Shown: piece after piece, positions 5,301-28,160 of the stretch | How positions within the stretch are numbered: position 1 is the stretch's first letter | Layout: every line of letters begins with the position of its first letter | Assembly: GCA_963815455.1 (NCBI GenBank) | Contig: CAWFGO010000001.1 | Span: forward strand, 1,056,001-1,120,000 | DNA: 64,000 bases | From: an uncultured Verrucomicrobiae bacterium | GTDB taxonomy: Bacteria; Verrucomicrobiota; Verrucomicrobiia; Chthoniobacterales; UBA10450 | Reading direction: 5' to 3' | Position numbers and translations under genes: made by a program | The notes under the pieces: generated by a model | Database searches by the model: none | Seen by the model: only the letters and a program-made list of their open reading frames with translations | What the model was told of the DNA's origin: nothing

Positions 5301-8224
5301 CCAGTCGTCGGCTCGTCGAAAATGAACAAACCGCCCCTGGCTTCCTTTTGGCCGTTCGATTCCTCGCCTGAGCGAGTATCAGACAGGTGCCGAACCAGTC
5401 TGAGCCTTTGAGATTCGCCGCCGCTTAATGTATTCAGCGGTTGCCCCAATTTCAGATAACCGAGCCCGACTTCCTCCAGCACATCGAGAGGTTCGGAAAG
5501 AGTCTTCAGCTCGCCGATCTCGGCGAAGAATCGGGTCGCTTCGCTGACGGTCAGCTCAAGCAAATCGTGAATCGATTTACCTTCCAGCATTACTTTCAAC
5601 ACGTGCGGTTGAAAACGCCGGCCTTCACACTCGGCGCATCGCACATAAAGATCGCTCAGGAATTGCATCTCGATCTTTTCAAATCCTGTGCCCGAACAAC
5701 GCTCGCAACGACCGCTGCCGGAATTAAACGAAAATGCGCTGGCGGTCAGCCCCTGGGCCATCGCTTCCGGCTGCGCGGCGAACAATTCGCGGACCCGATC
5801 GTAAAGTCCGAGATACAAAATCGGCGTCGAGCGCGGTGTGCGGGCCAGCGACGATTGATCGACCATCACCACTTCACCGATCCGGTGCGCGCCGGTGACA
5901 GATTTGCACGCGCCCGGTTCTCCTGCCGAGCCGTAGCCCTGCGAAGGCTGGTGATCGGATGCCTGGCCTTTGGCTACGAGCAGGTTTCGATAAAGCACAT
6001 CGTGAATGAGCGTGGATTTCCCGGAGCCGGACACGCCCGTCACGCAGGTGAAAACGCCGAGCGGAAGATCGACATCGATGTTTTTCAGATTGTGTTCGCG
6101 AGCGCCGGCGATCTTGATCGACGATGTCGATCTTCGTCGCTTCTTTGGGATCGAAATCGATTTATGACCGGCGAGATAATCGCGCGTGAGCGACAGGTGG
6201 ATCGGCCGCTCCGCGGGCGATGCTAAATCCGAAGCCGCGAAGCGGCTCAAATTAGATCGCTGCGCGATCTTGTTTGGCATCGTGCGCGGAGCGCCCGATC
6301 CACCAAGGAACCTCGCGAGACTTCCATCCCACACCAATTCGCCCCCGTCCTCGCCGCGACCCGGACCGATGTCGATCAAGTGATCGGCCGCGCGAATAAT
6401 TTGCTCTTCGTGCTCGACGACAAGGAGCGTATTGCCCTTGTCGCGCAAATTGTGCATCACTCGGACGAGCCGGCCGATATCGCGCGGATGGAGCCCGATG
6501 CTGGGCTCGTCCATCACAAACAGCGTGTTGACCAGCGACGCGCCGAGGCAGGTGGTGAGATTGACCCGTTGAACTTCGCCGCCGCTCAAGGTGCGCGTGG
6601 AACGATCGAGCGTCAGATAACCGAGCCCGACCTGGCAAAGATAATTCAGCCGCGCGCAGATTTCGGTGCGCAACATTTCCGCGGTCGAATCGCTTCCGGC
6701 GAGGTCGATCTTCCCGAGAAAATTGCCCGCATCGGAAATGGAGAGAGTCGCGAATTCCGGAAGCGTGATTGAAGCCACCTTGTAATTCAGCGCTTCCGGT
6801 TGAAAACGGCCGCCGTTGCAACTTGGGCAGGTCGTGTAAGCACGATAACGGCTGAGCAGTACTCGCACGTGCATCTTATAAGTCTTGCTCTCGAGCCAGC
6901 GGAAAAATCCGCGCACACCGTACCAACGATCGTTCTCGTAATCGTCATCGATGTATTCGCCCGATCGCTTTTCCCCTTCGATCACGAAGGTTTGATCGCT
7001 CTTGGGCAATTCCTCGAACGGAACGCGAATGTCGATCTCCTCGCGAGCACAAGCCCGGAGCAAATCCTTTTGGGATTCGCCAAACTCCGTGCCGCGAAAA
7101 GCGCGGACCGCGCCCTGGGCAATGCTCAGGCTGCGATCGGGGATCGCTTTGTTGAGATCGATGGCGATGGTACGGCCGAACCCGCGACATTCCGGACACG
7201 CGCCGAGCGGATTATTAAAACTGAACAGACCCGGACTGGGCGCACGAATATCGAGGTCGCAATGCGCGCAATGCCAACCGGTGGAGAAGGGATGTTCGTG
7301 TTCCTGGAGGGACGAGCTTCCGCTCGTCCTAAGACGTGCAGAAGCACGTCCCTCCGAAGGAGTCTTGATGACGTTGACTTTGCCTTTGCCGAAACGAAGC
7401 GCGGTTTCGATCGCTTCGACCAGGCGCGCGCGATTCTCGCTGCTGATCGTGATCCGGTCCTGAATAACCTGGACCCGCGCGCCGAGGCGTAATTTTTTCT
7501 TAGGATCGACATCAACCCGCACAATTTCGTTGTCGATCCAGACGCGCAGATAACCCTGTTGCTGAAGAAACTCGAAGAACTTGCGCGGCTCTGTCTTTGC
7601 CGGAACGGAAATCCAGAAAGTGATCAGCGCGGTTCTCCTGTCATCCTGAGCCCCGAACGCTTTCGGGGTGGAAGGATCCCCTGGCGAAGCCTTTGCGCTT
7701 TTTCCACGGGATTTCTCGACTCCGTTCCGCTTCGCTTCATTCCGCTCGAAATGACAATAAATTTCATCCGCGATCGATTTCGCCGTTTCCGGTCGAATTT
7801 CGCGGCCGCAGCTTGGACAGAACGCATGGGCGATGCGGGGCCAGAGCAACTTCAGGTAATCATTGATCTCGGTCATCGTGCCGACAGTGGAGCGCGACGA
7901 TTTGACCGGGTTCGATTGTTCAATCGCGATGGCAGGCGGAATGCCGCGGATGTCGTCCACGCGCGGCTTGTCCATGCGATCGAGGAATTGCCGCATGTAG
8001 GGGCTGAACGTTTCGACGTATCGCCGCTGCCCTTCGGCGTAAATGGTTTCGAAGGCGAGGCTCGATTTCCCGCTGCCGCTCGGGCCGGTGACGACGGTCA
8101 GTTTCCCGAGCGGAAGATCGACATCGATCCCCTTCAGGTTGTTCTGACGCGCCCCGCGAATCTCGATGCAATCAACTTCAGCGACGTCCACCACGCGTTC
8201 TTTTTCGGCAGCCTTTGAACCCAC
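2306..8224 (-). CDS. uvrA: Excinuclease ABC subunit A, double-length form with four ABC ATPase domains
   Basis: Four GARxxNLK/GxSGSGKS Walker A units, four LSGGE signatures and CxxC zinc fingers in 1972 aa. Confidence 0.95.
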   Translation of the reverse strand: MGSKAAEKERVVDVAEVDCIEIRGARQNNLKGIDVDLPLGKLTVVTGPSGSGKSSLAFETIYAEGQRRYVETFSPYMRQFLDRMDKPRVDDIRGIPPAIAIEQSNPVKSSRSTVGTMTEINDYLKLLWPRIAHAFCPSCGREIRPETAKSIADEIYCHFERNEAKRNGVEKSRGKSAKASPGDPSTPKAFGAQDDRRTALITFWISVPAKTEPRKFFEFLQQQGYLRVWIDNEIVRVDVDPKKKLRLGARVQVIQDRITISSENRARLVEAIETALRFGKGKVNVIKTPSEGRASARLRTSGSSSLQEHEHPFSTGWHCAHCDLDIRAPSPGLFSFNNPLGACPECRGFGRTIAIDLNKAIPDRSLSIAQGAVRAFRGTEFGESQKDLLRACAREEIDIRVPFEELPKSDQTFVIEGEKRSGEYIDDDYENDRWYGVRGFFRWLESKTYKMHVRVLLSRYRAYTTCPSCNGGRFQPEALNYKVASITLPEFATLSISDAGNFLGKIDLAGSDSTAEMLRTEICARLNYLCQVGLGYLTLDRSTRTLSGGEVQRVNLTTCLGASLVNTLFVMDEPSIGLHPRDIGRLVRVMHNLRDKGNTLLVVEHEEQIIRAADHLIDIGPGRGEDGGELVWDGSLARFLGGSGAPRTMPNKIAQRSNLSRFAASDLASPAERPIHLSLTRDYLAGHKSISIPKKRRRSTSSIKIAGAREHNLKNIDVDLPLGVFTCVTGVSGSGKSTLIHDVLYRNLLVAKGQASDHQPSQGYGSAGEPGACKSVTGAHRIGEVVMVDQSSLARTPRSTPILYLGLYDRVRELFAAQPEAMAQGLTASAFSFNSGSGRCERCSGTGFEKIEMQFLSDLYVRCAECEGRRFQPHVLKVMLEGKSIHDLLELTVSEATRFFAEIGELKTLSEPLDVLEEVGLGYLKLGQPLNTLSGGESQRLRLVRHLSDTRSGEESNGQKEARGGLFIFDEPTTGLHFDDVAILLRLFQRLVDRGHSIVVIEHNLEVIKSADWIIDLGPEAGDDGGQVVAIGTPEQVAKIDRSHTGQFLRSVISSAAQRSREIPLRYSDGGSAGSLDFARDDGVELARAAENSPLYGSTGAISIHGAREHNLKNIDVQIPRDQMVVITGLSGSGKSTLAFDILFAEGQRRFLDSMSPYARQFVEQLEKPDVDLVEGLPPSVAIEQRVTRGGGKSTVATVTEVYHFLRLLFAKTGTQFCPDCDLPVEKQSLAAIVKQVETAAKRGPLKVLAPLVKARKGFHTDVARWAERQGFDTLYVDGALMPISQFRKLERFKEHTIDVVVGVIDARRILKARNLTQRAIEIGRGTAHLLDGKNRVAVMSTEMSCPGCGRAFEELDPRLFSFNSPHGACAECGGFGEIWNQRLQTGEKDDGESVLENELAAERESEWIDEEEARECPSCHGSRLNEVARHVRVQGFSVDQFTSLSASEAASKIDRLKFRGTQKTIAAELLPEIRQRLLFMENVGLGYLALGRSAKTLSGGESQRIRLAAQLGSNLRGVLYVLDEPTIGLHPRDNLRLLDTLTALRKKGNSLVIVEHDEETMRRADHIIDLGPRAGVHGGEVVATGTLRDIQGAKNSETGRYLKAPLCHPIRKSRRSLREVKNWIEIRKARANNLKEVDVRFPIGRLSVITGISGSGKSTLMHDVLWPAVRDELEERKRDGNGELFNLVSGAEKIEAVYEVDQSPIGKTSRSTPATYIKVFDEIRNLYAQLPVSRVRGYSASRFSFNSEGGRCETCKGQGVIKLEMNFLPSSYVPCEDCRGRRYNPQTLEVLYNEKSIGDVMEMTIEEAADFFSAHPKIGRALSLLVDTGLGYLKLGQPSPTLSGGEAQRLKLVTQLKRGVSRAANERIRKMRKPGSTLYLLEEPTIGLHMADVELLLNVLHRLVDEGNTVIVIEHNLSVIAEADYVVDLGPEAGADGGQIVATGTPEEVAKNRLSRTAPFLREVLETSSAL

Positions 8225-8450: not shown

Positions 8451-10257
8451 TTATTGAGCGAACCGGGCGGCAAGTTGATCGCGCTGCTTTAGCAGTTCAT
8501 CCGGGACCACGCCGCCGAGGGAATCGAAGAATTTTTCGTGTTCGGCCAGTTCCTTTTGCCATTCCCCATGATCGACACCGAGCAATTCGGCCACGTATTT
8601 GTGATCGATGTCGAGCTCAGCCAGATCGAGATCGTGCGGACCGGGCAGCCAGCCGACGGGCGATTTGACCGCGCCGCCTTTGCCTTCGCATCGGTCGATC
8701 ATCCATTTTAGCACGCGCATGTTGTCGCCAAACCCGGGCCACAAAAACTTTCCGCCTTCGCCTTTGCGGAACCAGTTCACGTTGAAAATAAGCGGCGGAT
8801 TGGTGAGCCGCGCGCCAATGTCGATCCAGTGACGGAAATAATCGCCGATGTTATAGCCGCAGAATGGCAACATCGCCATCGGGTCGCGCCGGACCTGGCC
8901 GACTGCGCCGGTGGCCGCCGCCGTTGTTTCCGAGGCCATGGTGGCGCCGAGATAAACGCCATGGTTCCAATCAAATGATTGAAACACCAGCGGCATCGTC
9001 CTGCTGCGACGGCCGCCGAAAATGATTGCGCTGATCGGAACGCCTTCGCCTTTTTCGAAATCGGGATCGAGCACGGGATTGTTGCGCGCCGGGGTGGTAA
9101 ACCGGCTGTTCGGGTGGGCGGCTTTATCTTTTGACGCCGGCGTCCAATCGTTGCCGCGCCAATCGATCGCGTGCTTGGGCGGGGCGTCGTTCTTTGCCTT
9201 CCCACCAGACGTCGCCGTCATCGGTGAGCGCGACATTAGTGTAAAGCGTGTCGCGCTCGATCGATTTCATCGCATTCGAATTCGATTTGTAATTCGTCCC
9301 GGGAACGACCCCGAAGTAGCCGTTCTCCGGATTGACCGCATACAGTCTGCCGTCGCGAATCTGCATCCAGGCGATGTCGTCGCCCACCGTCGTGACCTTC
9401 CACCCGGCGAAATGTTTCGGCGGAATCAGCATGGCGAAATTGGTTTTACCACACGCGCTCGGGAACGCTGCGGCGACGTAATGTTTTTTTCCGTCAGGCG
9501 ATTCGACGCCGAGGATCAACATATGCTCGGCCAGCCAGCCTTGTTTGCGCGCCAGATAGGAACCGATGCGCAGGGCGAGGCATTTCTTGCTCAGTAAGAC
9601 ATTCCCGCCGTAACCCGAGCCGACCGAAATGATGGCATTGTCCTGCGGGAAATGACAAATGAACCGGCGGGCAGGATCGACATCTAATAATGAGTGCACC
9701 CCGCGGTTCCATTCCGCCTTGGGATCGTTCCCGAGACGTTTCACCGCGACCGAGCCCATCCGGGTCATGATCCGCATGTTGAGCACGACGTAGATCGAAT
9801 CGGTAATCTCGAAACCGACCTTGGTCAGCGGCGATTCGGGCGGTCCCATGATATAAGGGATAACAAACATGGTCCGGCCGCTCATCGCCCCCTTGAGCAG
9901 ACCGTTCAGTTTCGTGTAAGTCTCGCCCGGATCGGCCCAGTTATTGGTCGGCCCGGCTTCTTGCTTCGTGGGTGTGCAAATGAAAGTGAATTGCTCGACC
10001 CGGGCGACATCGTTCGGATTCGACCGATGCAAATACGAGCCGGGAACTTTTTTCTGGTTCAGCTCGACCAGCCCATTCTGCCGCATGGCTTGATCGATCA
10101 GAAACTTGTTCTCCCGCTCGGAACCGTCGCACCAAAAAATGTTGTCCGGCTTGGTGAGTGCCTCGACTTCCTGCACCCAATCGAGCACCGCTTGATTAGC
10201 CGGCTTGGCGTCGCCGATGCCGGCAGGCGGCGAAATGGCAGGTGCGATATTTTTCAT
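8451..10257 (-). CDS. pckG: Phosphoenolpyruvate carboxykinase (GTP), split by a +1 frameshift near 9194
   Basis: AFPSACGKTN and GDDIAW in ORF 9124-10350; HPNSRF, FGGRR and RRDPMAMLPFCGY in ORF 8451-9236. Removing one base from TTT at 9193-9195 restores WWEGKNDAPPKHAIDW. Confidence 0.9.
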
Positions 10258-10345
10258 GGATAAAGATGTCGATCCTACTGAATCGACCCGAAGAGAGGTA
10301 TGTTCGCCGGAGCGGGCGCGTTCTCCAAGAAATTTTTCGCCTCCC

Positions 10346-10472
10346 GTCATCCCGAGCGAAGTCGCCTGCCGAGCCGTAGCTTCATGCGAAGGCTGGAGGG
10401 ATCCCGCTGCGGGACTTTACGGTAACATCGCGGGATCCTTCGACCCCGAATGCGTTCGGGGCTCAGGATGAC
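10346..10472. repeat. Family A palindrome with a nested family B element (10365-10396)
   Basis: The arm GAGCGAAGTCG|AGGGATCCC is interrupted by CCTGCCGAGCCGTAGC...GCGAAGGCTGG. Confidence 0.8.
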
Positions 10473-13663: not shown

Positions 13664-13738
<75 letters not shown>

Positions 13739-13930
13739 TTTTGCAGGGAGTGAACAGTGATCAGTGAACGGCGATCAGTCAAGCAGACCATCTGTCGCGT
13801 CGCAGAAAGCGCGCTACGGAAAATCATTCGTCAGCGCGCACCGGAACTGGTCCGCCTTTCCATCGGAAAAAGCTTCGGCTCCAATTGCGCTTCCGCTAAG
13901 CGCAAAGTGTGTGATACAGGTTGAGTCTTA

Positions 13931-14215
13931 ATGCCGCTCACCTTCGAATGGGATTCGCGCAAAGCGCGATCCAATCTCGCTAAACACGGTGTTACGTTCG
14001 AAGAAGCGGCCACAATTTTCGGCGATGTACGGTCGCTCACTATTCCCGATCCGGAACATTCACGGACGGAATTACGGTTCGTCACTATGGGTAAGGCGTT
14101 CGGCGACAAATTGGTCGTTGTCGTGCATACAGAACGCAGTGATAATATTCGAATAATTAGCGCCCGACGAGCCAGCCGGCGAGAACGGACATATTATGAA
14201 AAAGAAATCTCGTAA
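13931..14215 (+). CDS. brnT: BrnT family toxin
   Basis: FEWDSRKARSNLAKHGVTFEEA...RIISAR. Confidence 0.92.
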   Translation: MPLTFEWDSRKARSNLAKHGVTFEEAATIFGDVRSLTIPDPEHSRTELRFVTMGKAFGDKLVVVVHTERSDNIRIISARRASRRERTYYEKEIS

Positions 14216-14411
14216 ATCTGAAGAGCAATTGATGCAGAACGATTACGATTTCTCGCGAGCAGTGCGCGGAAAATACGCCCGTCGTTATTCTCAGGGAACA
14301 AATGTTGTGATTTTGGAGCCTGACGTCGCCAAAGTGTTTCCAAATTCGAAGGCGGTGAATACCTCGCTACGGAAAATCATTCGTCAGCGCGCACCGGAAC
14401 TGACGAAATAA
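14196..14411 (+). CDS. BrnA-like antitoxin
   Basis: YDFSRAVRGKY...LEPDVAKVF...VNTSLR; overlaps brnT. Confidence 0.85.
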   Translation: MKKKSRKSEEQLMQNDYDFSRAVRGKYARRYSQGTNVVILEPDVAKVFPNSKAVNTSLRKIIRQRAPELTK

Positions 14412-14538
14412 TCCGCGCCGACTTCTGACGTGCGACATCTTCGCCAAGGGACGAAGCTCGCGAAAGCTTTCGGAGCTTACACTTGACCGATCCGGCCGCT
14501 AAATGGCGTTCCGGCTTGACCAATAACTTGACTTACGC

Positions 14539-15552: not shown

Positions 15553-15559
15553 AAGCCGA

Positions 15560-15679
15560 CAAGGAACGAAGCTCGCGAAAGCTTTCGGAGCTGCCCTCTT
15601 CGCCAAGGGACGAAGCTCGCGAAAGCTTTCGGAGCTGACCTCTTCGCCAAGGGACGAAGCTCGCGAAAGCTTTCGGAGC
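15560..15679. repeat. Tandem 44-bp repeat (two full copies and one partial); another copy at 14438-14477
   Basis: TCTTCGCCAAGGGACGAAGCTCGCGAAAGCTTTCGGAGC starting at 14438, 15597 and 15641, partial at 15560. Confidence 0.9.
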
Positions 15680-15683
15680 GACC

Positions 15684-15760
15684 TCTGTTTTCTGTTCTCT
15701 GTCCTCTGTTCTTTGTCCTCTGTCCTCTGTCCTCTGTCCTCTGACTTCTGTCTTCTGACT
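15684..15760. repeat. Heptamer tandem repeat (TCTGTCC/TCTGACT)n
   Basis: About 11 degenerate 7-mer units read directly from the sequence. Confidence 0.85.
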
Positions 15761-15931
15761 TCCTTGTCGCGCCGACTTGCCTGCCTCGCCGTAGTCCCAG
15801 ACGCAGGCGGGTTACGCCGAAGCGCACGGAGGAGGAAGCCTCGCGCATAGGCGGATCACCGACTCAACATCTTCCGCGCGGCATTTCGCTTTTGTGCGGA
15901 AGCGATCTCGGTTAGGATTCCGCTCCGATAA

Positions 15932-16997
15932 ATGGCCAGAGCAAGATCGACAAAATCATCCAACAACTCGTCGGCCAGCCTCGGCTTCGAAGCAAAGCTT
16001 TGGCTCGCCGCCGACAAGCTTCGTTCCAACATGGACGCGGCCGAATACAAGCACGTCGTTCTCGGCCTCATTTTCCTCAAGTACATCTCCGATGCCTTTG
16101 AGGAGAAGCACACTCAGCTCCTGAGCGAGCCCGGCGCTGATCCCGAAGATCCCGACGAATATAAAGCCGAGAACGTCTTCTGGGTTCCGCCCGGTGCGCG
16201 TTGGACCTACCTTCAGAACAGCGCCAAGCAGCCCGAGATTGGCAAGATCGTCGACGATGCCATGGTCGCGATCGAGCGCGACAACCCGCGCCTCAAAGGC
16301 GTCTTGCCGAAGGAATACGCCCGCCCGGCGCTCGACAAACATCGGTTAGGCGAACTCATCGACCTCATCGGCACCATCGGCATGGGTGACAAAGCCAGCC
16401 GATCCAAAGACATCCTCGGTCGCGTTTACGAATATTTCTTAGGTCAATTCGCCAGCGCCGAAGGAAAGAAGGGTGGCCAGTTCTACACCCCGCAGAGCGT
16501 CGTCCGCCTCCTCGTCGAGATGCTCGCCCCGTACAAAGGCCGCATCTACGATCCCTGCTGCGGCTCCGGCGGCATGTTCGTGCAATCGGAAAAATTCGTC
16601 GAAGCCCACGGCGGCCGGCTCGGCGACATCAGCATCTACGGCCAGGAAAGCAACGCCACCACCCGGCGCCTCGCCGTCATGAACCTCGCTCTGCGCGGCA
16701 TCGAGGCCGACTTCGGCCCCGAGCACGCCGACACCTTCCGGCGCGACCTCCATCCCGACCTCCGCGCCGACTACTTCCTCGCCAACCCGCCCTTCAACGA
16801 CTCCGACTGGTTCCGCAAAGACGACGACGTGCGCTGGCAATGGAGAGAAGCGACATGGACGACCAACGGGAGCCCGAAGGGTGAGCACAATCAGGCTCAT
16901 CAATATCCTTCTCCCCAGCGGGGCAACGCCAACTTCGCCTGGGTGCAGCACTTCATCCACCACCTCGCGCTCCACGGCATGGCCGGCTTCGTCCTCG
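15932..16997 (+). pseudogene. hsdM: Type I R-M methyltransferase HsdM, 3'-truncated
   Basis: [29 protein letters not shown] and NANFAWVQH motifs. Similarity stops after GMAGFVL, so roughly the last third is missing. Confidence 0.88.
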
Positions 16998-17109
16998 TCC
17001 GATTCTGGTTTTGGGTAAAACACAGATTCCACAGGGCCGGATCACGCCAGGAGACAGGCAACGCGTTGTGCGCGTTCAACGAAGCATGTCATCGATCTGG
17101 GCTAATTTG

Positions 17110-17874
17110 ATGTCGGCTGATTCCTACTTACAAAATATCTTGAATCGCGAGGCGGTGGACACTGGTCCCTATTCGCCGGTTCGTAGCGTCCAAGCGACCG
17201 TGCAGCCGGTAATCTCAGAATGGGCGGGTAATCTACTAAATGGCATCGGAGTGAGCGGCTCGTTCATGAAAGGAACTGCCAACCGCAGCGGTACCGATAT
17301 TGATCTGTTCATCTCACTTTCGGCGAACACACCCGAAAGCCTGAAAGAGATTTACGAATCACTCTTCGCGCGCATGAGCCAGAAAGGCTACGGCCCGAAG
17401 CGCCAAAACGTTTCAATCAACGTGAAGGTCAACGGCTACAGCGTAGACCTTGTGCCGGGGAAGCAACAGAACGTCTATACGACTGATCACAGCATTTACA
17501 AACGTCGGGCGGATACGTGGACAAAGACAAACGTGGCAACTCACATCACACATGTGAGGCAGTACAATCGCCTTAACGAGAGCAGAATTCTCAAACTGTG
17601 GCGCAACCAGAAAAGCCTGGAGTTTCCATCCTTCTATCTCGAGCTAACCGTCATTGACGCCCTGCCATGGCAACTCGCGCCGGAAGCGTTATCGGGCAAT
17701 GTGTGGCGCGTTTTCCAATATCTGCGGGACCGTTTCGCGAATGCTCGCGTTGTCGATCCGGCGAACACTAACAATATCATCTCAGACGACCTAACGGTCG
17801 CTGAGAAAGGCAAGGTTCAGGCCGCTGCTGAACTGGCGCTCAGCGCAGCAAATTGGAACGAGATTGTGCAATGA
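17110..17874 (+). CDS. cGAS/DncV-like (SMODS) nucleotidyltransferase, putative CBASS cyclase
   Basis: SGSFMKGTANRSGTDIDL and VDLVP catalytic motifs, LKLW...PSFYLEL...DPANTNNII C-lobe; directly upstream of nucC. Confidence 0.88.
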   Translation: MSADSYLQNILNREAVDTGPYSPVRSVQATVQPVISEWAGNLLNGIGVSGSFMKGTANRSGTDIDLFISLSANTPESLKEIYESLFARMSQKGYGPKRQNVSINVKVNGYSVDLVPGKQQNVYTTDHSIYKRRADTWTKTNVATHITHVRQYNRLNESRILKLWRNQKSLEFPSFYLELTVIDALPWQLAPEALSGNVWRVFQYLRDRFANARVVDPANTNNIISDDLTVAEKGKVQAAAELALSAANWNEIVQ

Positions 17875-18584
17875 GCTGGTCGCTTTCGCAGATTTTAGCA
17901 GGATTGCATGATGACATTGAGCGCCGGTTAAAGACGACTCGGGAGACTTTAGCCTTCTCCGTAGCGAAGGGCGATGCTTCCGAAAATGTGTGGCGGGACC
18001 TCCTCGAAACTTATTTGCCTCGGCGTTACCAAGTCGAGACAGCACATGTCGTGGACAGTAACAATGTCTTCAGCGACCAAATCGATGTGGTCGTGTTCGA
18101 CCGTCAGTATTCGCCCCTAATGTTTCATTTCCAGGGACAGAAGGTCATCCCTGCCGAAAGCGTCTATGCCGTCTTCGAGGCAAAGCAAAGCATCAATGCC
18201 GATCTGGTCGCATACGCACAGAAGAAAGTAGCAAGCGTTCGCGCCCTTTATCGAACGAGTCTGCCAATTCCTTCTGCCTCAGGGCTGCAGCCCCCGAAGG
18301 TGATACCGCATATCATTGGTGGGCTGTTGGCTTTTGAGAGTGATTGGAATCCGCCGCTCGGCCAAGCACTAAGTGACGCTCTTAGTCGTGGCGAGATGGG
18401 CGGTCGTCTTGACCTTGGTTGTATCGCCGCGCATGGAACGTTCGGCTGTGATGAAAACGGCTGTTACAACTTCACGCCGGCCGGCAAGCCCGCTGCGGCA
18501 TTTCTACTGGAGTTCATAGCTCGACTACAGGCGAGCGCAACCGTGCCAATGATCGATATTCGCGCGTACACAAAATGGCTGTAG
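17871..18584 (+). CDS. nucC: CBASS effector endonuclease NucC
   Basis: KGDASENVW, YLPRRY, SDQIDVVVFDRQYSP, PAESVYAVFEAKQ and ATVPMIDIRAY motifs; ATGA overlap with the cyclase stop. Confidence 0.93.
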   Translation: MSWSLSQILAGLHDDIERRLKTTRETLAFSVAKGDASENVWRDLLETYLPRRYQVETAHVVDSNNVFSDQIDVVVFDRQYSPLMFHFQGQKVIPAESVYAVFEAKQSINADLVAYAQKKVASVRALYRTSLPIPSASGLQPPKVIPHIIGGLLAFESDWNPPLGQALSDALSRGEMGGRLDLGCIAAHGTFGCDENGCYNFTPAGKPAAAFLLEFIARLQASATVPMIDIRAYTKWL

Positions 18585-21500
18585 TAAGAGACTCACGCGC
18601 CAATTTGGGAGGGTCGCTTGCGAAAACCCATCCGCAGATAGCTGCGCAGTGGCATCCGACAAAGAATGCGCCTCTTACGCCCGACATAATCAAAGAAAAC
18701 AGCTACAAGCTGATTTGGTGGATATGTTCTAAGGGACACGAATTTCCCTGCCGCGTAAACAAACGCACCCGCCAGGGACATGGCTGCTCGTTTTGCGCCG
18801 GCCAACGAACTGCCGTCGAGGATTCCATAGCTGTCCTCTTCCCCAAGCTTGCCGCAGAATGGCATCCGACGAAAAACGATTTGCGGCCGATCGATGTTCG
18901 TCCGGGCAGCAATCGCATGGTTTGGTGGCTTTGTTCGAAAGGTCATGACTGGGAGGCAACAGTTTGTCGACGTGCGCGCGGTAGCGGTTGTCCGAAGTGC
19001 TCTGGCCGATTATTGTCTCGCGAAAATTCGTTTGGTGGAAGATATCCACAGCTCGCCGCGCAGTGGCATCCGCTGAAAAACGGTTCGGCGACACCCTTCG
19101 ACTATACATCAAGTAGCCAAGAGAACGTTTGGTGGCAGTGCAATGCAAGGCCACCACATGAATGGCAGAGTAAGATAAGGTCCCGTGCAGCTCATCCTTC
19201 GTTGGGATGCCGAAAGTGCGCACGTGCTAAGCAAGGAAAAACACACCTAGGCGCGCTCGACCGATCTCACCCGATCCTATGTGCCGAGTGGGATTATGAG
19301 GGAAACGCGCCGCTTGTGCCATCGGACTTCAAAGCAAACAGCCACCAGATAGTCGCCTGGAAATGCTCCAAATACCCTGAGCACATTTGGTCCGCTTCGA
19401 TTCGCAATCGCGCGGTTCTTGGAAACGGCTGTCGGTTCTGTGCGGGGCAAGCAGCATGTCCGCAAAATTCGCTAGAAGCCCTGCGGCCAGATCTCGCTGC
19501 ACAGTGGCATCCGATGCTGAACGGCAGTCTGACACCTAGCATGGTCACTGTTGGCAGCGACAAGGTTGTTTGGTGGCAGTGTCCCGTCGATTCGGAGCAC
19601 ATCTGGCGGGCAAAGATTCAGCCTCGTGTAAAGCGCGACATCGGCTGTCCTGACTGTCGACAAAAAGCACGTCCTGAAAGATCGCTCGCAAAGGTGTTGC
19701 CCGCCCTTGCTAACGAGTGGGACACGAAGAAAAACAAAAGGGGGCCGGAAACCCTCACGATTGGTTCCCAGGTTTCCGGATGGTGGCGATGTTCGAAAGA
19801 CCCGTCCCATGTTTGGCGGGCGACGGTAAAGAACCGAGCGGCGTACGATCGTGGCTGTCCTCGTTGCCGCGTCGGCTGGACTGTTCCCGCCATCCGCGCG
19901 TTTGTTGATGGGCTGAAGCATCACCTAAAGGCATTCACGCCAGCGGAGTTGTATGTGCTTTTTCAGCAGAATGGCTTGCTTAGCGGTGATCGGAAATCGC
20001 AAACGTTCATCGATGCTTTGGGAACTGGAAGATTTCCGTTTGGAGAGATAGAGAAGTTTTGTCGTGGTGAGAAGTCGCTCGTGGACAAGTTTCTCGCCGA
20101 TCAAGCGACAACTCTCGAAAGCCTAACAAGTGAAAAGGCGAATGCTGCGGAGAAGCAGGGCGAGTTAGGGCTGGTCGATGAGGCACAGGCGGACGAAACC
20201 GCGCTCCCGGCCGTCCAGACAGTGGATGTGCTGCGGTCACTGCAATCTACTGTTGTGATTTCGGCAGATCAGGAAGCCGTGGAGTTTCTTGTCGCATCGG
20301 CTTTAGCGAAGATTTGGAAGCACGCCTTTCGCGACGAAGCAGCAGCGCTGGAACAGGCGCGCGGGTTTGAAGGCGATGCTTATGCCGATCGCGTGCGCAC
20401 AGATTTCCTTGCCGAGCACGAGCGCGCCGCAAAGCTTCCGATTCCGGCGGGCTATGCCTTTACTGTGGATGGAAAGATCGCGCTGCCGAATCTGATGCAG
20501 CGGCTCACGGCGGCGCGCGTTCTGCAACGGCGGCGTGTCGGCAACTGGTCGGGGACCGGCGCGGGTAAGACGCTTTCCGCCGTACTCGCTAGTCGCGCGT
20601 CAGGCGCGGGGCTGACGCTGGTGTGTTGTCCGAACAGTGTCGTCGAGGGTTGGCGCACCGCGATTCTCGCGAGCTTTCCCAACAGCGTAGTCGGCACAAA
20701 ATCATTCGTGCCGGATTGGTCCGCGCTCGCGGGCGACGCGACGGGGTTCGGCGCCGCGCCGAGGCACCGCTACCTGGTGTTGAACTACGAGATGTTTCAG
20801 CAGGAGGACTCGGAGGCAAAGGTGCGGCGCTTCGCCGAGGCGGAGACGGCGGACTTCATCGTCGTGGACGAGATTCATTTCACCAAGCAGCGCACGGCAG
20901 AGAATCTTTCGCGGCGCAAGCGGATCATCGCCGCGCTCATCGCGCTTGCCGCGGTGAAGCAGCCGCGGCTTTGCGTGCTGGGCATGTCGGCGACGCCGGT
21001 GATCAATAATCTTCAGGAAGGCCGGAGTCTTGTGGAGATGGTCAGCGGTCTGGAGCACCCGGACATCGAAACGCGACCGACCGTCGCGAATTGCATGAAG
21101 CTGCATCAGCGGCTCGTCTCTCTCGGCACGCGCTGGGTGCCGAAATACGACGCCGAACTGGAGCAGTGCGAGGTTCCGATCGACTGCTGCGACGCGATCG
21201 AGGAAATCCGCGCGCTCGGCCGCGCCGGTTCGCCGCTGGCATTGGAGCAAATCCTCACGCGTGTTCGGCTGCCGATCATCAGACGCGAAGTGCGGCGGAA
21301 GACGCTGCTATATACCCACTACCTCCAAGGCATCGAAGGTCCGCTGCGCGACGCACTCACGGAAGATGGATGGCGTGTCGGCTTTTTTACCGGCGACGAC
21401 AAGACTGGGCTCGATGGTTTTCTGCATGGCGACGTGGATGTCCTTATTGGCTCAAGTGCGATCGGTACAGGCGTAGACGGTCTCCAAGATGTTTGCGAAC

Positions 21501-22465
21501 GGCTCATCGTAAACGTGCTGCCGTGGACAAACGCGGAGTTTGAGCAGCTCAAAGGACGAATCTACCGGCAAGGCCAGCGCGCAGAAAAAGTAACGGTGGT
21601 GCTGCCGCTCACGTTTGCTGCCGTCAATGGCGAACGCTGGTCATGGTGCGAGTCCAAGATGCGGCGGCTGAAGTTCAAGAAGTCCATTGCCGACGCCGCC
21701 GTCGATGGCGTCGTGCCCGAGGGACATCTGCGTTCGCCCGCACAAGCATATCAGGATGTGATTGGCTGGCTGGGTCGCCTAACGAGCGGCGAAGTGGAAA
21801 TCGTGAGCCGCACGCCGATCGCGGCTGCGCTTTCACCCGACGCCGCCGAGAGCGAGCGACGCTCGTGTAGTTACGGCGACTTCTCGACGATGAACCGCAA
21901 CTGGAATCAAACCGGCAGCGCGAAGATAGCGGAGCGGCTTCGCGCAGACCCAGACGAGTGGGCGCACTACCACACGCTTTATCGCGAGGCGCGAAAGACG
22001 TGGGCAGTTGTGCCTTTCGAGGAAGTGATCCGCTGGGCAGAGAAGCGCAGCGGCTACGTAATTGGTGACTTTGGTTGCGGTGAAGCAAAGCTCGCGACGG
22101 CGCTCGGGGACCGGCACACAGTTCACAGCTTCGACTATGTCCCGGCAAATGAGGACGTGATCGCTTGCGACATCGCGCACATCCCGATGGAAGACGAATC
22201 GCTCGATGTCGCCGTGTTCTCTCTATCTCTGATGGGCGCCAACTTCACGGACTACCTTCGCGAAGCGTGGCGCTTACTAAAGCTCGATGGGCAGCTGCAC
22301 ATCTATGAAGCGACATCCCGTTTCACAGAGCGAAACGCGTTTGTCGACGGCTTGAAAAAAATGGGGTTTGCGGTGGCCGAGGTGCGCGACGTTTGGAAGT
22401 TCAGCTACATCCACGCATTGCGAACCGACCGCGCGCCCGCCACGGAGTATCAGTTGAAGTTCTAA
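18575..22465 (+). CDS. Fusion of six Zn-ribbons (DUF4379-like), an SF2 helicase and an Rrp8/Methyltransf_8-like SAM methyltransferase
   Basis: Six W[HD]xxxN...WxC...H...GCxxC repeats; GTGAGKT, DEIH, SAT and QLKGRIYR; YHTLYRE...DFGCGEAKLA...LDVAVFSLSLMG. Confidence 0.85.
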   Translation: MAVVRDSRANLGGSLAKTHPQIAAQWHPTKNAPLTPDIIKENSYKLIWWICSKGHEFPCRVNKRTRQGHGCSFCAGQRTAVEDSIAVLFPKLAAEWHPTKNDLRPIDVRPGSNRMVWWLCSKGHDWEATVCRRARGSGCPKCSGRLLSRENSFGGRYPQLAAQWHPLKNGSATPFDYTSSSQENVWWQCNARPPHEWQSKIRSRAAHPSLGCRKCARAKQGKTHLGALDRSHPILCAEWDYEGNAPLVPSDFKANSHQIVAWKCSKYPEHIWSASIRNRAVLGNGCRFCAGQAACPQNSLEALRPDLAAQWHPMLNGSLTPSMVTVGSDKVVWWQCPVDSEHIWRAKIQPRVKRDIGCPDCRQKARPERSLAKVLPALANEWDTKKNKRGPETLTIGSQVSGWWRCSKDPSHVWRATVKNRAAYDRGCPRCRVGWTVPAIRAFVDGLKHHLKAFTPAELYVLFQQNGLLSGDRKSQTFIDALGTGRFPFGEIEKFCRGEKSLVDKFLADQATTLESLTSEKANAAEKQGELGLVDEAQADETALPAVQTVDVLRSLQSTVVISADQEAVEFLVASALAKIWKHAFRDEAAALEQARGFEGDAYADRVRTDFLAEHERAAKLPIPAGYAFTVDGKIALPNLMQRLTAARVLQRRRVGNWSGTGAGKTLSAVLASRASGAGLTLVCCPNSVVEGWRTAILASFPNSVVGTKSFVPDWSALAGDATGFGAAPRHRYLVLNYEMFQQEDSEAKVRRFAEAETADFIVVDEIHFTKQRTAENLSRRKRIIAALIALAAVKQPRLCVLGMSATPVINNLQEGRSLVEMVSGLEHPDIETRPTVANCMKLHQRLVSLGTRWVPKYDAELEQCEVPIDCCDAIEEIRALGRAGSPLALEQILTRVRLPIIRREVRRKTLLYTHYLQGIEGPLRDALTEDGWRVGFFTGDDKTGLDGFLHGDVDVLIGSSAIGTGVDGLQDVCERLIVNVLPWTNAEFEQLKGRIYRQGQRAEKVTVVLPLTFAAVNGERWSWCESKMRRLKFKKSIADAAVDGVVPEGHLRSPAQAYQDVIGWLGRLTSGEVEIVSRTPIAAALSPDAAESERRSCSYGDFSTMNRNWNQTGSAKIAERLRADPDEWAHYHTLYREARKTWAVVPFEEVIRWAEKRSGYVIGDFGCGEAKLATALGDRHTVHSFDYVPANEDVIACDIAHIPMEDESLDVAVFSLSLMGANFTDYLREAWRLLKLDGQLHIYEATSRFTERNAFVDGLKKMGFAVAEVRDVWKFSYIHALRTDRAPATEYQLKF

Positions 22466-22466
22466 C

Positions 22467-24308
22467 TGCACCGGCACGCCGATCGAGAAGACCGACGCCA
22501 ATACGCGCGCGGTCTTCGGCGATTTGCCTTCCCAGGCTCTACGGAAGTGCCGCCCTTTGTTAGAATGCGCTATCGCGCGGTAGTCATCAGCATCTACGAC
22601 ATCCAGCGCGCCGTGGTCCCGCAGTCGCGGGATGCCGATCTATTACGAGAGCCGCGTGGCCAAGCTGGGGTTGAACCAAAGCGAGCTGCCGAAGATCGAC
22701 GAGGAATTCGAAGCGATCACCGAGGGCGAAGAGTTGACGCGCAAGGAGAAGCTCAAGACGAAGTGGGCCGCACTCGAAGCGCTGGTCGGAAATCCGAGGC
22801 GGATCGATCTTGTCGCCGCCGATCTCGTGCAGCACTACGAGCGCCGGCTCGAAGCGATGGAAGGCAAGGCGATGATTGTGTGCATGAGTCGCCGCATCTG
22901 CGTGGAGATGTATAACGCGATCATCAAGCTGCGGCCGGAATGGGCGAGCGGACCTAACGATGATGACACCGGAAAGTCATGCGTCGCGAAGATCGTCATG
23001 ACGGGCAGCGCGGAGGATGGGCCGGATTGGCAGCAGCACATCCGTAATAAAGATAAGCGGCGCGCACTCGCGGGACGGTTCAAGGATCCAAAGGACCCGT
23101 TCAAGATAGTGATCGTCCGCGACATGTGGCTAACCGGATTCGACGCTCCGGTCCTCAGCACAATGTACGTCGATAAGCCGATGCGCGGGCATGGGCTCAT
23201 GCAAGCGATCGCGCGCGTCAACCGCGTCTTCCGCGACAAGCCGGGTGGCTTGGTCGTCGATTATCTCGGCCTCGCCGATCAACTGAAGCAAGCCCTTGCC
23301 ACGTACACCGACAGTGGAGGCAGAGGAACTCCGAGCCTGGACACTGCCGCGGCTATCGCGGTGATGCTCGAGAAACACGAGATCGCCTGCGGAATGATGC
23401 ATCCGTTCGACTGGTCGAAATGGCACGACGGAACGCCCGCGCAGAAGATGGCGCTTCTTCCGCCTGCCCAGGAGCACATCCTTCAACAAGAGAACGGCAA
23501 GGAACGGTTCATCCAAATCGTGACTGAGCTATCGCAAGCGTTCGCTCTATGCGCCGGGAGCGAAGAAGCGTTAGCGATCCGCGACGACATTGGATTCTTC
23601 CAAGCCGTCAAAGCAGCGTTAGCTAAACCGCGCGGCGAACGAAAATCCTCCGAGGTTCTCGATCACGCAGTCCGCCAACTTGTCGCGAAAGCGATTGTGC
23701 CCGAAGGCGAGATCATTGATGTCTTCAGCGCCGCAGGCTTAAAGCAGCCAGACATCAGCATCCTGAGCGATCAGTTCCTCGCCGAAGTTCGCGGACTCAA
23801 ATACAAAAACGTCGCTGCAGAGCTGTTAGCGAAGCTGTTAGGCGACGAAATCAAAGTGCGTTCGAAGCGGAACCTTGTCCAAAGCCGCGAGTTTTCCGAG
23901 ATGCTGAAGAAGACTCTCAACGCCTATCACAACCGAGCAATCGCAACGCAGGAAGTCATTGAAGAGCTAATCAAGCTCGCCAAGCAACTAAGCGAAGCAG
24001 ACAAGCGCGGAGTCGACTTGGGATTGAACGATGACGAAGTCGCTTTCTATGATGCGCTAGCGGCAAATAATAGTGCTGTCGAGGTCATGGGAAAGGATTC
24101 GCTAAAGATCATTGCCACGGAACTCGTTACGCAGGTTCGCAAAAGCGTCACGATCGATTGGACTCTTCGCGAAAGCGCTCGCGCGAAGATCAAAGTCCTC
24201 GTGAAGCGCATCCTAAGAAAGCACGGCTATCCGCCCGACTTCCAAGACGAGGCGGTCAAGACCGTCCTAGCCCAAGCCGAGCTTCTCTGCGCCGAATGGG
24301 CGGCGTAA
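22467..24308 (+). pseudogene. hsdR: Type I R-M restriction subunit HsdR, C-terminal remnant (DUF3387-like tail)
   Basis: Begins at TGTPIEKTDANTRAVFGD; has [20 protein letters not shown] and [12 protein letters not shown]. The nuclease domain and Walker A/B are absent, and there are disruptions at 22524-22632. Confidence 0.88.
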
Positions 24309-24334
24309 AAAATTGCTAAGCGACTACGAACAAT

Positions 24335-25324
24335 ATGAACCCGATAGGCAAATTGGAATCCGTTGAACTAAGGGTTGCTTGGCAAAACGAAGCGACCGGT
24401 TTTACGCCTTGGCTCGCGATGGAAGAGAACATCGCTTTGCTGAGCGAAACACTCGACCTGCAGCTGGAACTGGAGAAGGCAGAAAAAGATGTTGGTCCAT
24501 ATAGCGCGGATATCGTCTGTCGGGATGTTCAGACGGATAGGATCGTTCTGATCGAAAATCAGCTAGAAAAAACCGACCACGGGCACCTCGGCCAACTCTT
24601 CACCTACGCCGCCGGCGTCGACGCGGTTATCCTTATATGGATTGCAAAGAAGTTTACAGAAGAACACCGCGCTGCCGTTGACTGGTTGAATAAAATTTCT
24701 GGACCGGACTTTCATTTCTTCGCTCTAGAAGTTCAGCTTTGGCGAATTGGGGATTCCCCACCTGCTCCGAAATTCAACATCGTATGCAAGCCCAACGACT
24801 GGAGTAAAACGCTGAAGACTCGATTGGACGACGAAGGCCAAACAGAGCATCAACTCTTGCGTCTCCGTTTCTGGACCGCCTTCAAGGAATGGGCAGAAGG
24901 ACATACGTCGCTACATTTGCACAGTCCTAGCGACTGCCACTGGTTAAATATGTCAGCGGGGCGCAGCGGGATGCATTTCGCCGCTATAATTTCCAAATGG
25001 AACACTTTTCAAAACAAGTATTCACCTGAGATTCGAGCCGAGTTGGTCTTAACGTCAGATAAAGCGAAGAAGCAATTTGCGTCGCTTCAAGCACGTAAGG
25101 ATGAGGTATCCCTAAACCCGGATCGAATCGGCCGTTTGAATATTACATTATTCCATCTGAGGTCATGGCCGAGAATGTTTCGAAGGCGCACAAACTTTGG
25201 CTATCGACTCCCGGAAAGAAAGGTCAAGCACACAAGGACAACACTGTGCGCACAGTTCATCTTCCCCCTCACAAGTCTTTCAGCGGTTGGGATATTTCCC
25301 CTTATCGCGATCGCTGGGATCTGA
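24335..25324 (+). CDS. DUF4268-associated PD-(D/E)XK-like protein; C-terminus probably truncated near 25108
   Basis: FTPWLA, ADIVC...LIENQLEKTDHGHLGQ and LRFWTAF motifs; the tail after RKDEV looks non-homologous. Confidence 0.7.
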   Translation: MNPIGKLESVELRVAWQNEATGFTPWLAMEENIALLSETLDLQLELEKAEKDVGPYSADIVCRDVQTDRIVLIENQLEKTDHGHLGQLFTYAAGVDAVILIWIAKKFTEEHRAAVDWLNKISGPDFHFFALEVQLWRIGDSPPAPKFNIVCKPNDWSKTLKTRLDDEGQTEHQLLRLRFWTAFKEWAEGHTSLHLHSPSDCHWLNMSAGRSGMHFAAIISKWNTFQNKYSPEIRAELVLTSDKAKKQFASLQARKDEVSLNPDRIGRLNITLFHLRSWPRMFRRRTNFGYRLPERKVKHTRTTLCAQFIFPLTSLSAVGIFPLIAIAGI

Positions 25325-26536: not shown

Positions 26537-26652
26537 CAGAACTCGGCTGGGGGGGCAAAGCCAGGGTCGGGGGCAAAGCCAGGGTCAAATCTTCGAATCT
26601 TGACCGCGCTGGAATGGCAGCGCGAATCATCAAAGAGCCAAAGGGGTCAGTC

Positions 26653-26833: not shown

Positions 26834-27790
26834 TTATCGGTTAACTGGGAGCTGGGGAGTTGGGGTTGGTTTTGCTTTCCGTTCAGCACCCGCGTCGCCC
26901 TGCTCCCGTTGCCTGGATTCCATCTGCCTGTCGTGGCGGTGTTGATGACGGCCTCGCCCAGCGTCTCCTTGTTCATCGGCTTCGGACATTTGGCCCTCCC
27001 TGGCATGGTGCAGTTTTCTTCCGTGATCGCCGCCAGCGGTTGCGGGGTCGCTCGGTTGTCCGTGACCTTTTCGTTTCGTTTTTGGATGTTGATTGATCTT
27101 CGCGTTCCCTGCATCGCCGGCGTTGATTGTGTTACCCGGCGCGGCCGTGGCCGTCGGGTTGTTGTCGTTGAATTGACTGTTCTGGATGATGATGTTCTTG
27201 CTCGGCGTGATCGTTCCCGTTCCGGTTCCCGTAGCGTGTGACGCGTCATTTATTTGGGATCCCTGAATGGGAACATTCTTGGTGGGCGTTATCGTTGCCG
27301 TTTCCGTACCTGCGTCTTGGGTGGCCTGATTCACCTGCGATCCCTGAATTTGGATATTAGTCGGTGCCGGGGTCGCCGATGCAGCGGGCGAGCCGCCCGC
27401 TTTGGCCGGGTTAGTATTGACGATTCCTTCGCCGACCTGCTGGTTTTGTGAAAACCTCACTTGGGGGCCCATGAGCGAGAGACCCGGATTAGCTGAAGCA
27501 GCTGGTGAAATCGACGTTGCCGGGCTCGGCGAAGTGGCAGCAGACGCCCCGGAGTTTTGAGGCGGAAGCGTGATAAGCGAAGACAAACCGGCTCCGGAAG
27601 TTTGGGGAGGAGGAGTATCTACAGGAGTCGAAACCGCGGACAAATTCGGCAGATTCGGTTGCGGAGGGCCGGACGGTGTACCGACAACCTGGACATTCTG
27701 GACATTGGTTTGCGCGACCGCTGATAGCGCCAACGCCAAGGCGCCACTCGTTGTCACGAAACAAATGAAATTGCCGATGGTTCTCTTCAT
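26834..27790 (-). CDS. Secreted low-complexity hypothetical protein
   Basis: Signal peptide ending AVA-Q; P/S/T-rich; repeated IQGSQ[VI]N and TITP.KN units; charged C-terminus. Confidence 0.6.
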   Translation of the reverse strand: MKRTIGNFICFVTTSGALALALSAVAQTNVQNVQVVGTPSGPPQPNLPNLSAVSTPVDTPPPQTSGAGLSSLITLPPQNSGASAATSPSPATSISPAASANPGLSLMGPQVRFSQNQQVGEGIVNTNPAKAGGSPAASATPAPTNIQIQGSQVNQATQDAGTETATITPTKNVPIQGSQINDASHATGTGTGTITPSKNIIIQNSQFNDNNPTATAAPGNTINAGDAGNAKINQHPKTKRKGHGQPSDPATAGGDHGRKLHHAREGQMSEADEQGDAGRGRHQHRHDRQMESRQREQGDAGAERKAKPTPTPQLPVNR

Positions 27791-28160
27791 TTGTCGCCAT
27801 GTGTAAATGAATTGGTTCGCTAGGTCAATCCTGTTTGCGGGCCGTAGGCGGAGCGCGCGCGGGGCGCGCGCAAAGAGCCAAAGGGGTCAGTCCTCGGGTC
27901 AGGCATCAAATCTTGACAGCGCTGGAATGGCAGCGCGGATTATTGATTAATTGTTATCCGTTCCGTTGCTATACGTGACTCACGTATATCGTTTGGACGC
28001 AATAGAACAATAGGGTTCAGGCATCAAATCTTGACAGGATCGACAACTAAGAAGTCGAAAGCTGAGACACTGAAAAACTGATCGGCCGTTGCTGACTACG
28101 GCGGGGCCTGCCGCCGTAAAGGTCGCCGTAGCACCGCGGCTCGGGATGACAAGATCGGCC

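Follow-up and report, generated by a model that had tools for sequence, protein, structure and literature searches.

The 64,000-nucleotide (nt) stretch of an uncultured Verrucomicrobiae genome analysed here (the window) carries on its plus strand, at 18575-22465, a single unbroken open reading frame (ORF) that encodes one protein of 1296 amino acids (aa) plus stop. From the N-terminus, this fusion protein combines six treble-clef zinc ribbons (residues 26-431, positions 18650-19867), a conserved all-helical linker domain (residues 433-640, 19871-20494), an SNF2-like superfamily 2 (SF2) ATPase motor (residues ~641-1046, 20495-21712), and a class I S-adenosylmethionine (SAM) methyltransferase of the Rrp8/nucleomethylin (NML) type (residues ~1092-1296, 21848-22462). 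The public gene call in its own genome (P0002) is shorter, at 983 aa; the long start is supported because relatives from 79 loci align from residue 1-10 of the 1296-aa ORF onward. An initial annotation of this DNA had claimed six zinc ribbons, complete helicase motifs, and an Rrp8/NML-like C-terminal methyltransferase, with neither an NPPY/DPPY motif nor an obvious nuclease. This description is accurate: the domains are documented below, no (D/N/S)PP(Y/F/W/H) amino-methyltransferase motif occurs anywhere in the 1296 aa, and no nuclease family was found in the protein with Pfam, NCBIfam, or PADLOC.

The six stretches of the array match the Pfam family DUF4379/PF14311, a 'probable treble clef zinc finger', with an E-value of 1.6e-97 and 320 bits (cut-off 24.5). 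The repeats, each of about 50 aa, were delimited with a regular expression (residues 26-74, 96-142, 164-215, 239-289, 311-361, and 382-431), and all six show the pattern W-x-C...H...C-x2-C, i.e. four ligands per unit. The repeated profile matches together with the four predicted metal ligands per unit make the repeats members of DUF4379. The array is predicted to be a nucleic-acid reading module, probably one that reads DNA. According to PMC12350094, phage homing endonucleases carry DUF4379-like arrays that probably serve them for DNA binding, and PMC5513546 reports a putative restriction endonuclease of marseilleviruses fused to four DUF4379 domains.

The linker (residues 433-640), for which no Pfam family was matched, is all-helical in the AlphaFold model, contains many invariant columns, and is present in relatives regardless of which N-terminal array they carry. 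In the motor, helicase motifs I, II, III, and VI are intact, with GTGAGKT at residue 660, DEIH at 765, SATPVIN at 805, SATPVINNLQEG, and QLKGRIYRQGQ at 991; motif III (TPVINNLQEG) and motif VI (QxxGRxxRxGQ) are SNF2-like. Among Pfam models, ResIII scores above its cut-off (26.8 vs 22.5 bits), and the weak SF2 matches to DEAD, SNF2-rel_dom, and Helicase_C all lie under theirs. We modelled residues 431-1296 with AlphaFold2 from a 36-row alignment (mean predicted local distance difference test, pLDDT, 78.6; predicted template-modelling score, pTM, 0.63) and compared the model with the PDB using Foldseek, a check that the initial annotation had proposed. The top 50 matches include Ino80, Sth1, Mot1, Chd1, ISWI, CSB, RapA, Sulfolobus Rad54, and Rad54, all SNF2-family ATPases, and their sole non-SNF2 entry, at rank 9, is 2zfu_A, the methyltransferase domain of human nucleomethylin. 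The fold is nearest to SNF2 ATPase cores. A feature search of a protein atlas with the motor returned generic SNF2/ResIII helicase clusters alone. Short weak matches of the C-lobe to DrmD and BrxH lie far under the family cut-offs (NCBIfam, PADLOC); the protein is not a DISARM DrmD, as its NF038317 score of 34.8 bits, from 59 residues alone, falls far short of the required 610, and none of its neighbours is a DISARM, BREX, or Zorya partner gene (DrmA and DrmB included).

The C-terminal domain matches Methyltransf_8/PF05148 over residues 1101-1272 with an E-value of 1.1e-47 and 163.2 bits (cut-off 27). It carries the SAM motif DFGCG at residue 1165, followed by VHSFD and DVAVFSLSLMG, and its modelled class I Rossmann fold retains SAM-binding motif I and superposes on the NML domain of known structure. 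Generic methyltransferase models reach at most 28 bits, and Methyltransf_11 has an E-value of 4e-6. The family profile matches the sequence of 2ZFU with an E-value of 2e-43, and the conservation reaches far past the SAM-binding motifs. When searched by itself, the methyltransferase domain was found in 2813 representative clusters (50% identity) at E<=0.001 and in 249 at E<=1e-30. The majority of the 150 domain matches listed are the same fusion or its fragments. NCBI labels fragments as 'RRP8 family class I SAM-dependent methyltransferase'. Four of the listed proteins (P0332, P0360, P0389, and P0319) carry another kind of ResIII helicase at the N-terminus, and one, P0381, has a TIR domain fused to an Rrp8-type methyltransferase (TIR_2, E 1.5e-15). 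P0381 is a 377-aa metagenome protein. Eleven other listed matches are short and span PF05148 in full; four of them are named as eukaryotic (haptophyte, nematode, Creolimax, and an MMETSP transcript), the remaining seven being assigned to eukaryotes from profile coverage alone. Eukaryotic members cover profile positions 2-219 with 236-325 bits, compared with positions 13-185 of 219 and 163 bits for the window protein. A quick unrooted tree was made of 57 rows picked by hand from the query and the 150 listed matches. In it, the eleven sequences presumed to be eukaryotic group together on a long branch (SH-aLRT 100), amid bacterial sequences of greater diversity.

The core of the fusion protein (residues 430-1296) was found in at least 1576 proteins (clusters) at E<=0.001, from 7994 scored candidates. 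The 120 core matches listed are 55-100% identical, and their names go no further than 'zinc-ribbon domain-containing protein' or 'DEAD/DEAH box helicase'. For the locus comparison, one genome per species was scanned with a pattern; 97 places were confirmed, and 79 loci were kept. They come from Verrucomicrobiota, Planctomycetota, Cyanobacteria, Chlamydiota, Dependentiae, Myxococcota, Chloroflexota, Desulfuromonadales, Gemmatimonadota, Pseudomonadota, and one archaeal metagenome-assembled genome (MAG). The family also occurs in Actinomycetota, and its core identities are 45-94% across many phyla. The gene is present in one copy in the window's own genome, and no match at E<=1e-20 was found in any of 400 other sampled genomes of the same phylum. 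Since none of these genomes carries it and yet many phyla have the family, the gene is accessory and not housekeeping; it is a horizontally spread accessory gene. A housekeeping rRNA methyltransferase is ruled out by the same distribution. Family members were found in 3 of 72,556 plasmids and in none of 50,697 phage records, which speaks against a phage-borne gene.

The N-terminal array behaves differently from the core. In the closest relatives (L001-L003), the array is 44-58% identical to that of the window protein and the motor 92-94%. Non-synonymous differences per site (pN) amount to 0.30-0.40 in the array and 0.03-0.04 in the motor, i.e. they are about tenfold more frequent in the array, and synonymous differences per site (pS) to ~0.8 and 0.36-0.51. 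Because synonymous sites in the array are saturated, the comparison points to an array that is swapped or fast-evolving, with exchange on top of faster change. Other family members have N-termini of 1-14 ribbons, of 68-aa helix-turn-helix (HTH)-like repeats, or of integrase repeat units (INT_rpt), and a further type consists of a long region like sigma70_r4 or the RNA polymerase alpha C-terminal domain with one ribbon. The longest array noted, of about 14 tandem DUF4379 ribbons, is in a 1916-aa family member from a MAG of the cyanobacterium Symplocastrum (L023:6521-12271).

We clustered all ORFs of at least 80 aa from the 79 loci plus the window, and no neighbour cluster occurred in more than seven loci; the gene stands alone, with no conserved partner. 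A Pfam scan of 253 flanking ORFs from 75 loci (at most two ORFs per side) identified a restriction-modification (R-M), toxin-antitoxin, abortive-infection, integrase, resolvase, transposase, or phage-tail gene within two ORFs in 30 of the 75 loci, as judged by reading and with no background control. Six myxobacterial loci deviate from this picture: a gene for an MmeI-like type IIG enzyme lies directly upstream on the same strand (in L068, L070, and L071 the MmeI-like match spans part of the upstream ORF only). In the five myxobacterial loci compared, this pairing is kept down to 62% identity for the fusion protein and 53-61% for the partner, with differing outer flanks.

In the window itself, the gene lies in a defence island that begins beside tRNA-Val (13664-13738) and contains genes for BrnT, a SoFic-like Fic protein, a truncated hsdM, a cyclic-oligonucleotide-based antiphage signalling system (CBASS), the fusion protein, the C-terminal half of hsdR, a PDC-S11/DUF4268 protein, DUF6941, and MazF. 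The two-gene CBASS (17110-18584, plus strand) is complete and is a neighbour, not a part, of the fusion gene: a CD-NTase cyclase (17110-17874; PADLOC PDLC00803, E 1e-93) is followed by NucC (17853-18584; PDLC00745, E 3.7e-98), whose stop overlaps the start of the fusion gene by 10 nt. On either side lie remnants of a type I R-M locus, both on the plus strand. The truncated hsdM (15932-17110) matches N6_Mtase over 2-184 of 311 and PADLOC MTase_I over 3-325 of 932; of hsdR (22632-24308), only the C-terminal half is present (REase_I 481-1024 of 1029, PADLOC; T1R_D3-like 86-156/158 plus T1RH-like_C). In another Verrucomicrobiota MAG (L003:1-150 and 5937-7698), hsdM and hsdR are broken where those of the window are, and the fusion gene is again followed downstream by this piece of hsdR. 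The hsdM gene breaks after the motif '...GMAGFVL' in both, and the breakpoint is 97% identical over 102 nt (window 16919-17020), against ~80-83% for the flanking genes. Identical breakpoints in the two genomes therefore argue for one ancestral event. The cargo between them is CBASS plus the fusion gene in the window and DarT-DarG plus the fusion gene in L003; DarTG also fills the CBASS slot in L037. We considered the fusion protein as a substitute for the missing HsdR motor and rejected this, as hsd remnants occur in the window and L003 alone.

Counts of promoters and terminators in 15600-24500 are no higher than in shuffled sequence, and a search for att-like direct repeats bounding the island returned local repeat families only. 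Several of these lie in its left part: two perfect 38-nt direct repeats (13812-13849 and 14365-14402) bracket the BrnT gene (13931-14215) plus the next ~150 nt, and a 43-44-nt repeat with an internal palindrome (14438-14480; 15553-15683) occurs once before the SoFic-like gene and three times in tandem after it, these four copies being the only ones in the genome. A CT-rich 7-nt microsatellite of CCTCTGT-like units (15682-15765) separates the Fic gene from hsdM. At the right island edge, direct repeats of 60-70 nt (26593-26652 and 27871-27943) flank an unassigned minus-strand ORF of 318 aa (26834-27790). The PDC-S11/DUF4268 candidate-defence gene (24335-25324) lies two genes downstream of the fusion gene, and in a Parachlamydiaceae MAG a homologue 48% identical to it (L047:6604-7557) is directly upstream of the family member. 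Elsewhere in the window, a GTP-dependent phosphoenolpyruvate (PEP) carboxykinase (8451-10350, minus strand) is split into two overlapping ORFs, one covering PEPCK_N and profile positions 1-121 and the other positions 115-356, which is a frameshift or a sequencing error.

Our preferred reading, to which we give slightly less than even odds, is that the fusion protein is a stand-alone ATP-driven DNA base methyltransferase of a conflict system carried in defence islands or on mobile elements. It builds on what the analysis shows directly, namely the domain order with its intact motifs, a large and patchily spread family with a conserved core, solitary occurrence, an array that varies, and many neighbours from defence systems or mobile elements. 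DNA methylation during conflicts with phages or mobile elements is the likely function of the family as a whole, which may serve either as a host weapon against invaders or as a mobile element's own tool. Selection of the nucleic-acid site would fall to the zinc-ribbon array, a role suggested because related arrays front homing and viral endonucleases and because HTH-like or integrase-repeat arrays replace it within the family. By tracking or distorting duplex DNA, the SNF2-like motor would make a base accessible, which the Rrp8-like domain would then methylate. By analogy with Rrp8, the mark may be placed on N1 of adenine (m1A), where a methyl group on the Watson-Crick face would stall replication of the marked DNA. 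Our leaning toward DNA over RNA comes from the DUF4379 arrays on endonucleases (PMC12350094, PMC5513546), from the alternative N-termini, and from the MmeI-like upstream gene. The initial annotation had proposed a translocating modifier that may leave an atypical mark such as m1A on DNA or RNA, and this proposal is partly supported.

Several observations weigh against the preferred reading. An N1-adenine mark in the host's own DNA would be toxic, and no conserved antidote gene was found among the neighbours in the 79 loci. About 45 of the 75 scanned loci have purely housekeeping or unassigned neighbours, and neither PADLOC nor NCBIfam has a defence model that matches it throughout or in part above its cut-off. 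The core is under strong purifying selection (ratio of non-synonymous to synonymous rates, dN/dS, 0.05-0.2), which is unusual for immune effectors. With respect to the motor, SNF2-rel_dom stays below its gathering score (20.3 vs 24.9 bits), SNF2 structures lead generic SF2 ones by just ~3-4 Z units, and the domain arrangement in the model is uncertain because of its pTM. Finally, the characterised relatives of the methyltransferase all act on rRNA, and the solved DUF4379 proteins, as matched by the family profile, are trypanosome mitoribosome and assembly factors, leaning to RNA.

These last points bear on an RNA-directed enzyme. Its C-terminal domain, like Rrp8, would methylate RNA, either host rRNA or tRNA or that of a phage; the ribbons would bind RNA, and the motor would rearrange RNA or ribonucleoprotein. 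The outcome would be translation shut-off (abortive infection) or conditional ribosome modification. SNF2 motors, however, track duplex DNA, and the motor here is SNF2-like both in its best fold matches and in motifs III and VI. The alternative N-terminal arrays, which are HTH-like, integrase-repeat, or sigma-r4-like, also count against RNA, and R-M enzymes occur among the neighbours, including the conserved MmeI-like partner in Myxococcota. The 400 phylum genomes devoid of the gene further argue against a housekeeping rRNA modifier, and we consider an RNA substrate somewhat unlikely. The protein might also have a regulatory role and act on neither nucleic acid, with the Rrp8-like domain methylating a protein (e.g. 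one that is DNA-bound and displaced by the motor) or a small molecule. Class I methyltransferase folds switch substrate class readily, and the SNF2 relatives Mot1 and RapA, both among the fold matches, act on DNA-bound proteins; but the domain is far closer to Rrp8 than to any generic methyltransferase model, and its conservation with 2ZFU extends well past the SAM-binding motifs, which makes this quite improbable.

Two further explanations start from the genetic context. The gene might protect a mobile element from its host by methylating the element's own DNA along its length and so blunting restriction. The large helicase-methyltransferase proteins found on some plasmids and phages, e.g. 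P1 DarB, would be its counterparts. Of the three family-bearing plasmids, one is a MOBP mobilizable cyanobacterial plasmid; FtsK/SpoIIIE, SSB, and RES genes adjoin the family member on a Rhodococcus plasmid, integrases, primases, or resolvases adjoin the chlamydial and some other loci, and the core shows the strong conservation between phyla that a horizontally spreading gene should have. Yet plasmid carriage is confined to those three records and phage carriage to none, many loci are chromosomal with housekeeping flanks, and the protein is devoid of the amino-methyltransferase motif of the known protective N6-adenine or N4-cytosine enzymes, so that self-protection or counter-defence appears unlikely. 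At the locus itself, the shared strand, the 10-nt overlap between the NucC stop and the ATG of the fusion gene, and the lack of any promoter-like site above chance between the two would fit a third gene of the CBASS operon, an accessory sensor or second effector under the cyclic-oligonucleotide signal. Cyclase and NucC homologues, however, adjoin the family member in none of the 79 other loci, on which ground we rejected a three-gene CBASS despite the overlap; L003, with the same hsdM and hsdR breakpoints, has DarT-DarG in that slot, and the cyclase plus NucC already form a complete known system. Such a role is highly improbable.

Rrp8/NML is regarded as a eukaryotic nucleolar enzyme; here, a large bacterial family wires this domain to an SNF2-like motor and elsewhere to TIR or other helicases. 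Full-text literature searches, which did not extend to the supplementary tables of defence-system surveys where the family might be listed, turned up no report of a bacterial protein that joins Rrp8 to a helicase. If DNA is methylated, a motor-coupled non-amino methyltransferase would join the prokaryotic modification repertoire, along with a defence or counter-defence effector that needs no nuclease. Swappable repeat arrays could serve as a programmable targeting module, and the family offers a concrete test for the origin of a eukaryotic rRNA- and chromatin-linked methyltransferase. In its boldest form, which we think unlikely as a whole, the proposal is a new class of nuclease-free single-protein conflict enzymes that place a Watson-Crick-face lesion such as m1A in DNA, with a swappable array picking the target, an SNF2 motor opening the duplex, and the bacterial family as the stock from which eukaryotic Rrp8/nucleomethylin arose.

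Compared with known systems, the fusion protein shares parts with several of them. Rrp8/nucleomethylin (PF05148; PDB 2ZFU) differs from it in being a stand-alone nucleolar protein of ~300-460 aa with neither motor nor zinc ribbons; Rrp8 is said to be linked to m1A645 in rRNA through the work of Peifer et al. in 2013. As regards the motor, likeness extends to SNF2 ATPases, including the defence motors DrmD (DISARM), BrxH, and ZorD, and the two RecA lobes match Ino80, ISWI, CSB, and Chd1 best. With the homing and viral endonucleases, it shares tandem DUF4379/CapR-like ribbons in front of a DNA-acting enzyme, as described in PMC12350094 and PMC5513546; their effector is a nuclease, that of the fusion protein a motor with a methyltransferase. 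The type I single-polypeptide (ISP) R-M enzymes LlaGI and LlaBIII likewise unite in one polypeptide a part for DNA recognition, an SF2 translocase, and a methyltransferase. Unlike them, the fusion protein has no nuclease and no NPPY-type motif, its methyltransferase is of the Rrp8 type, and a repeat array would take the place of the target recognition domain; with no nuclease family and no motif IV in its 1296 aa, it falls outside the type ISP and type I-III motor-methylases. The eukaryotic DNMT5 also fuses an SNF2 motor to a base methyltransferase and couples ATP hydrolysis to methylation, but it is a C5-cytosine maintenance enzyme. We infer that the fusion protein belongs among the motor-coupled nucleic-acid methyltransferases of conflict systems, where it would stand apart by its Rrp8-type catalytic domain and its repeat-array front end.

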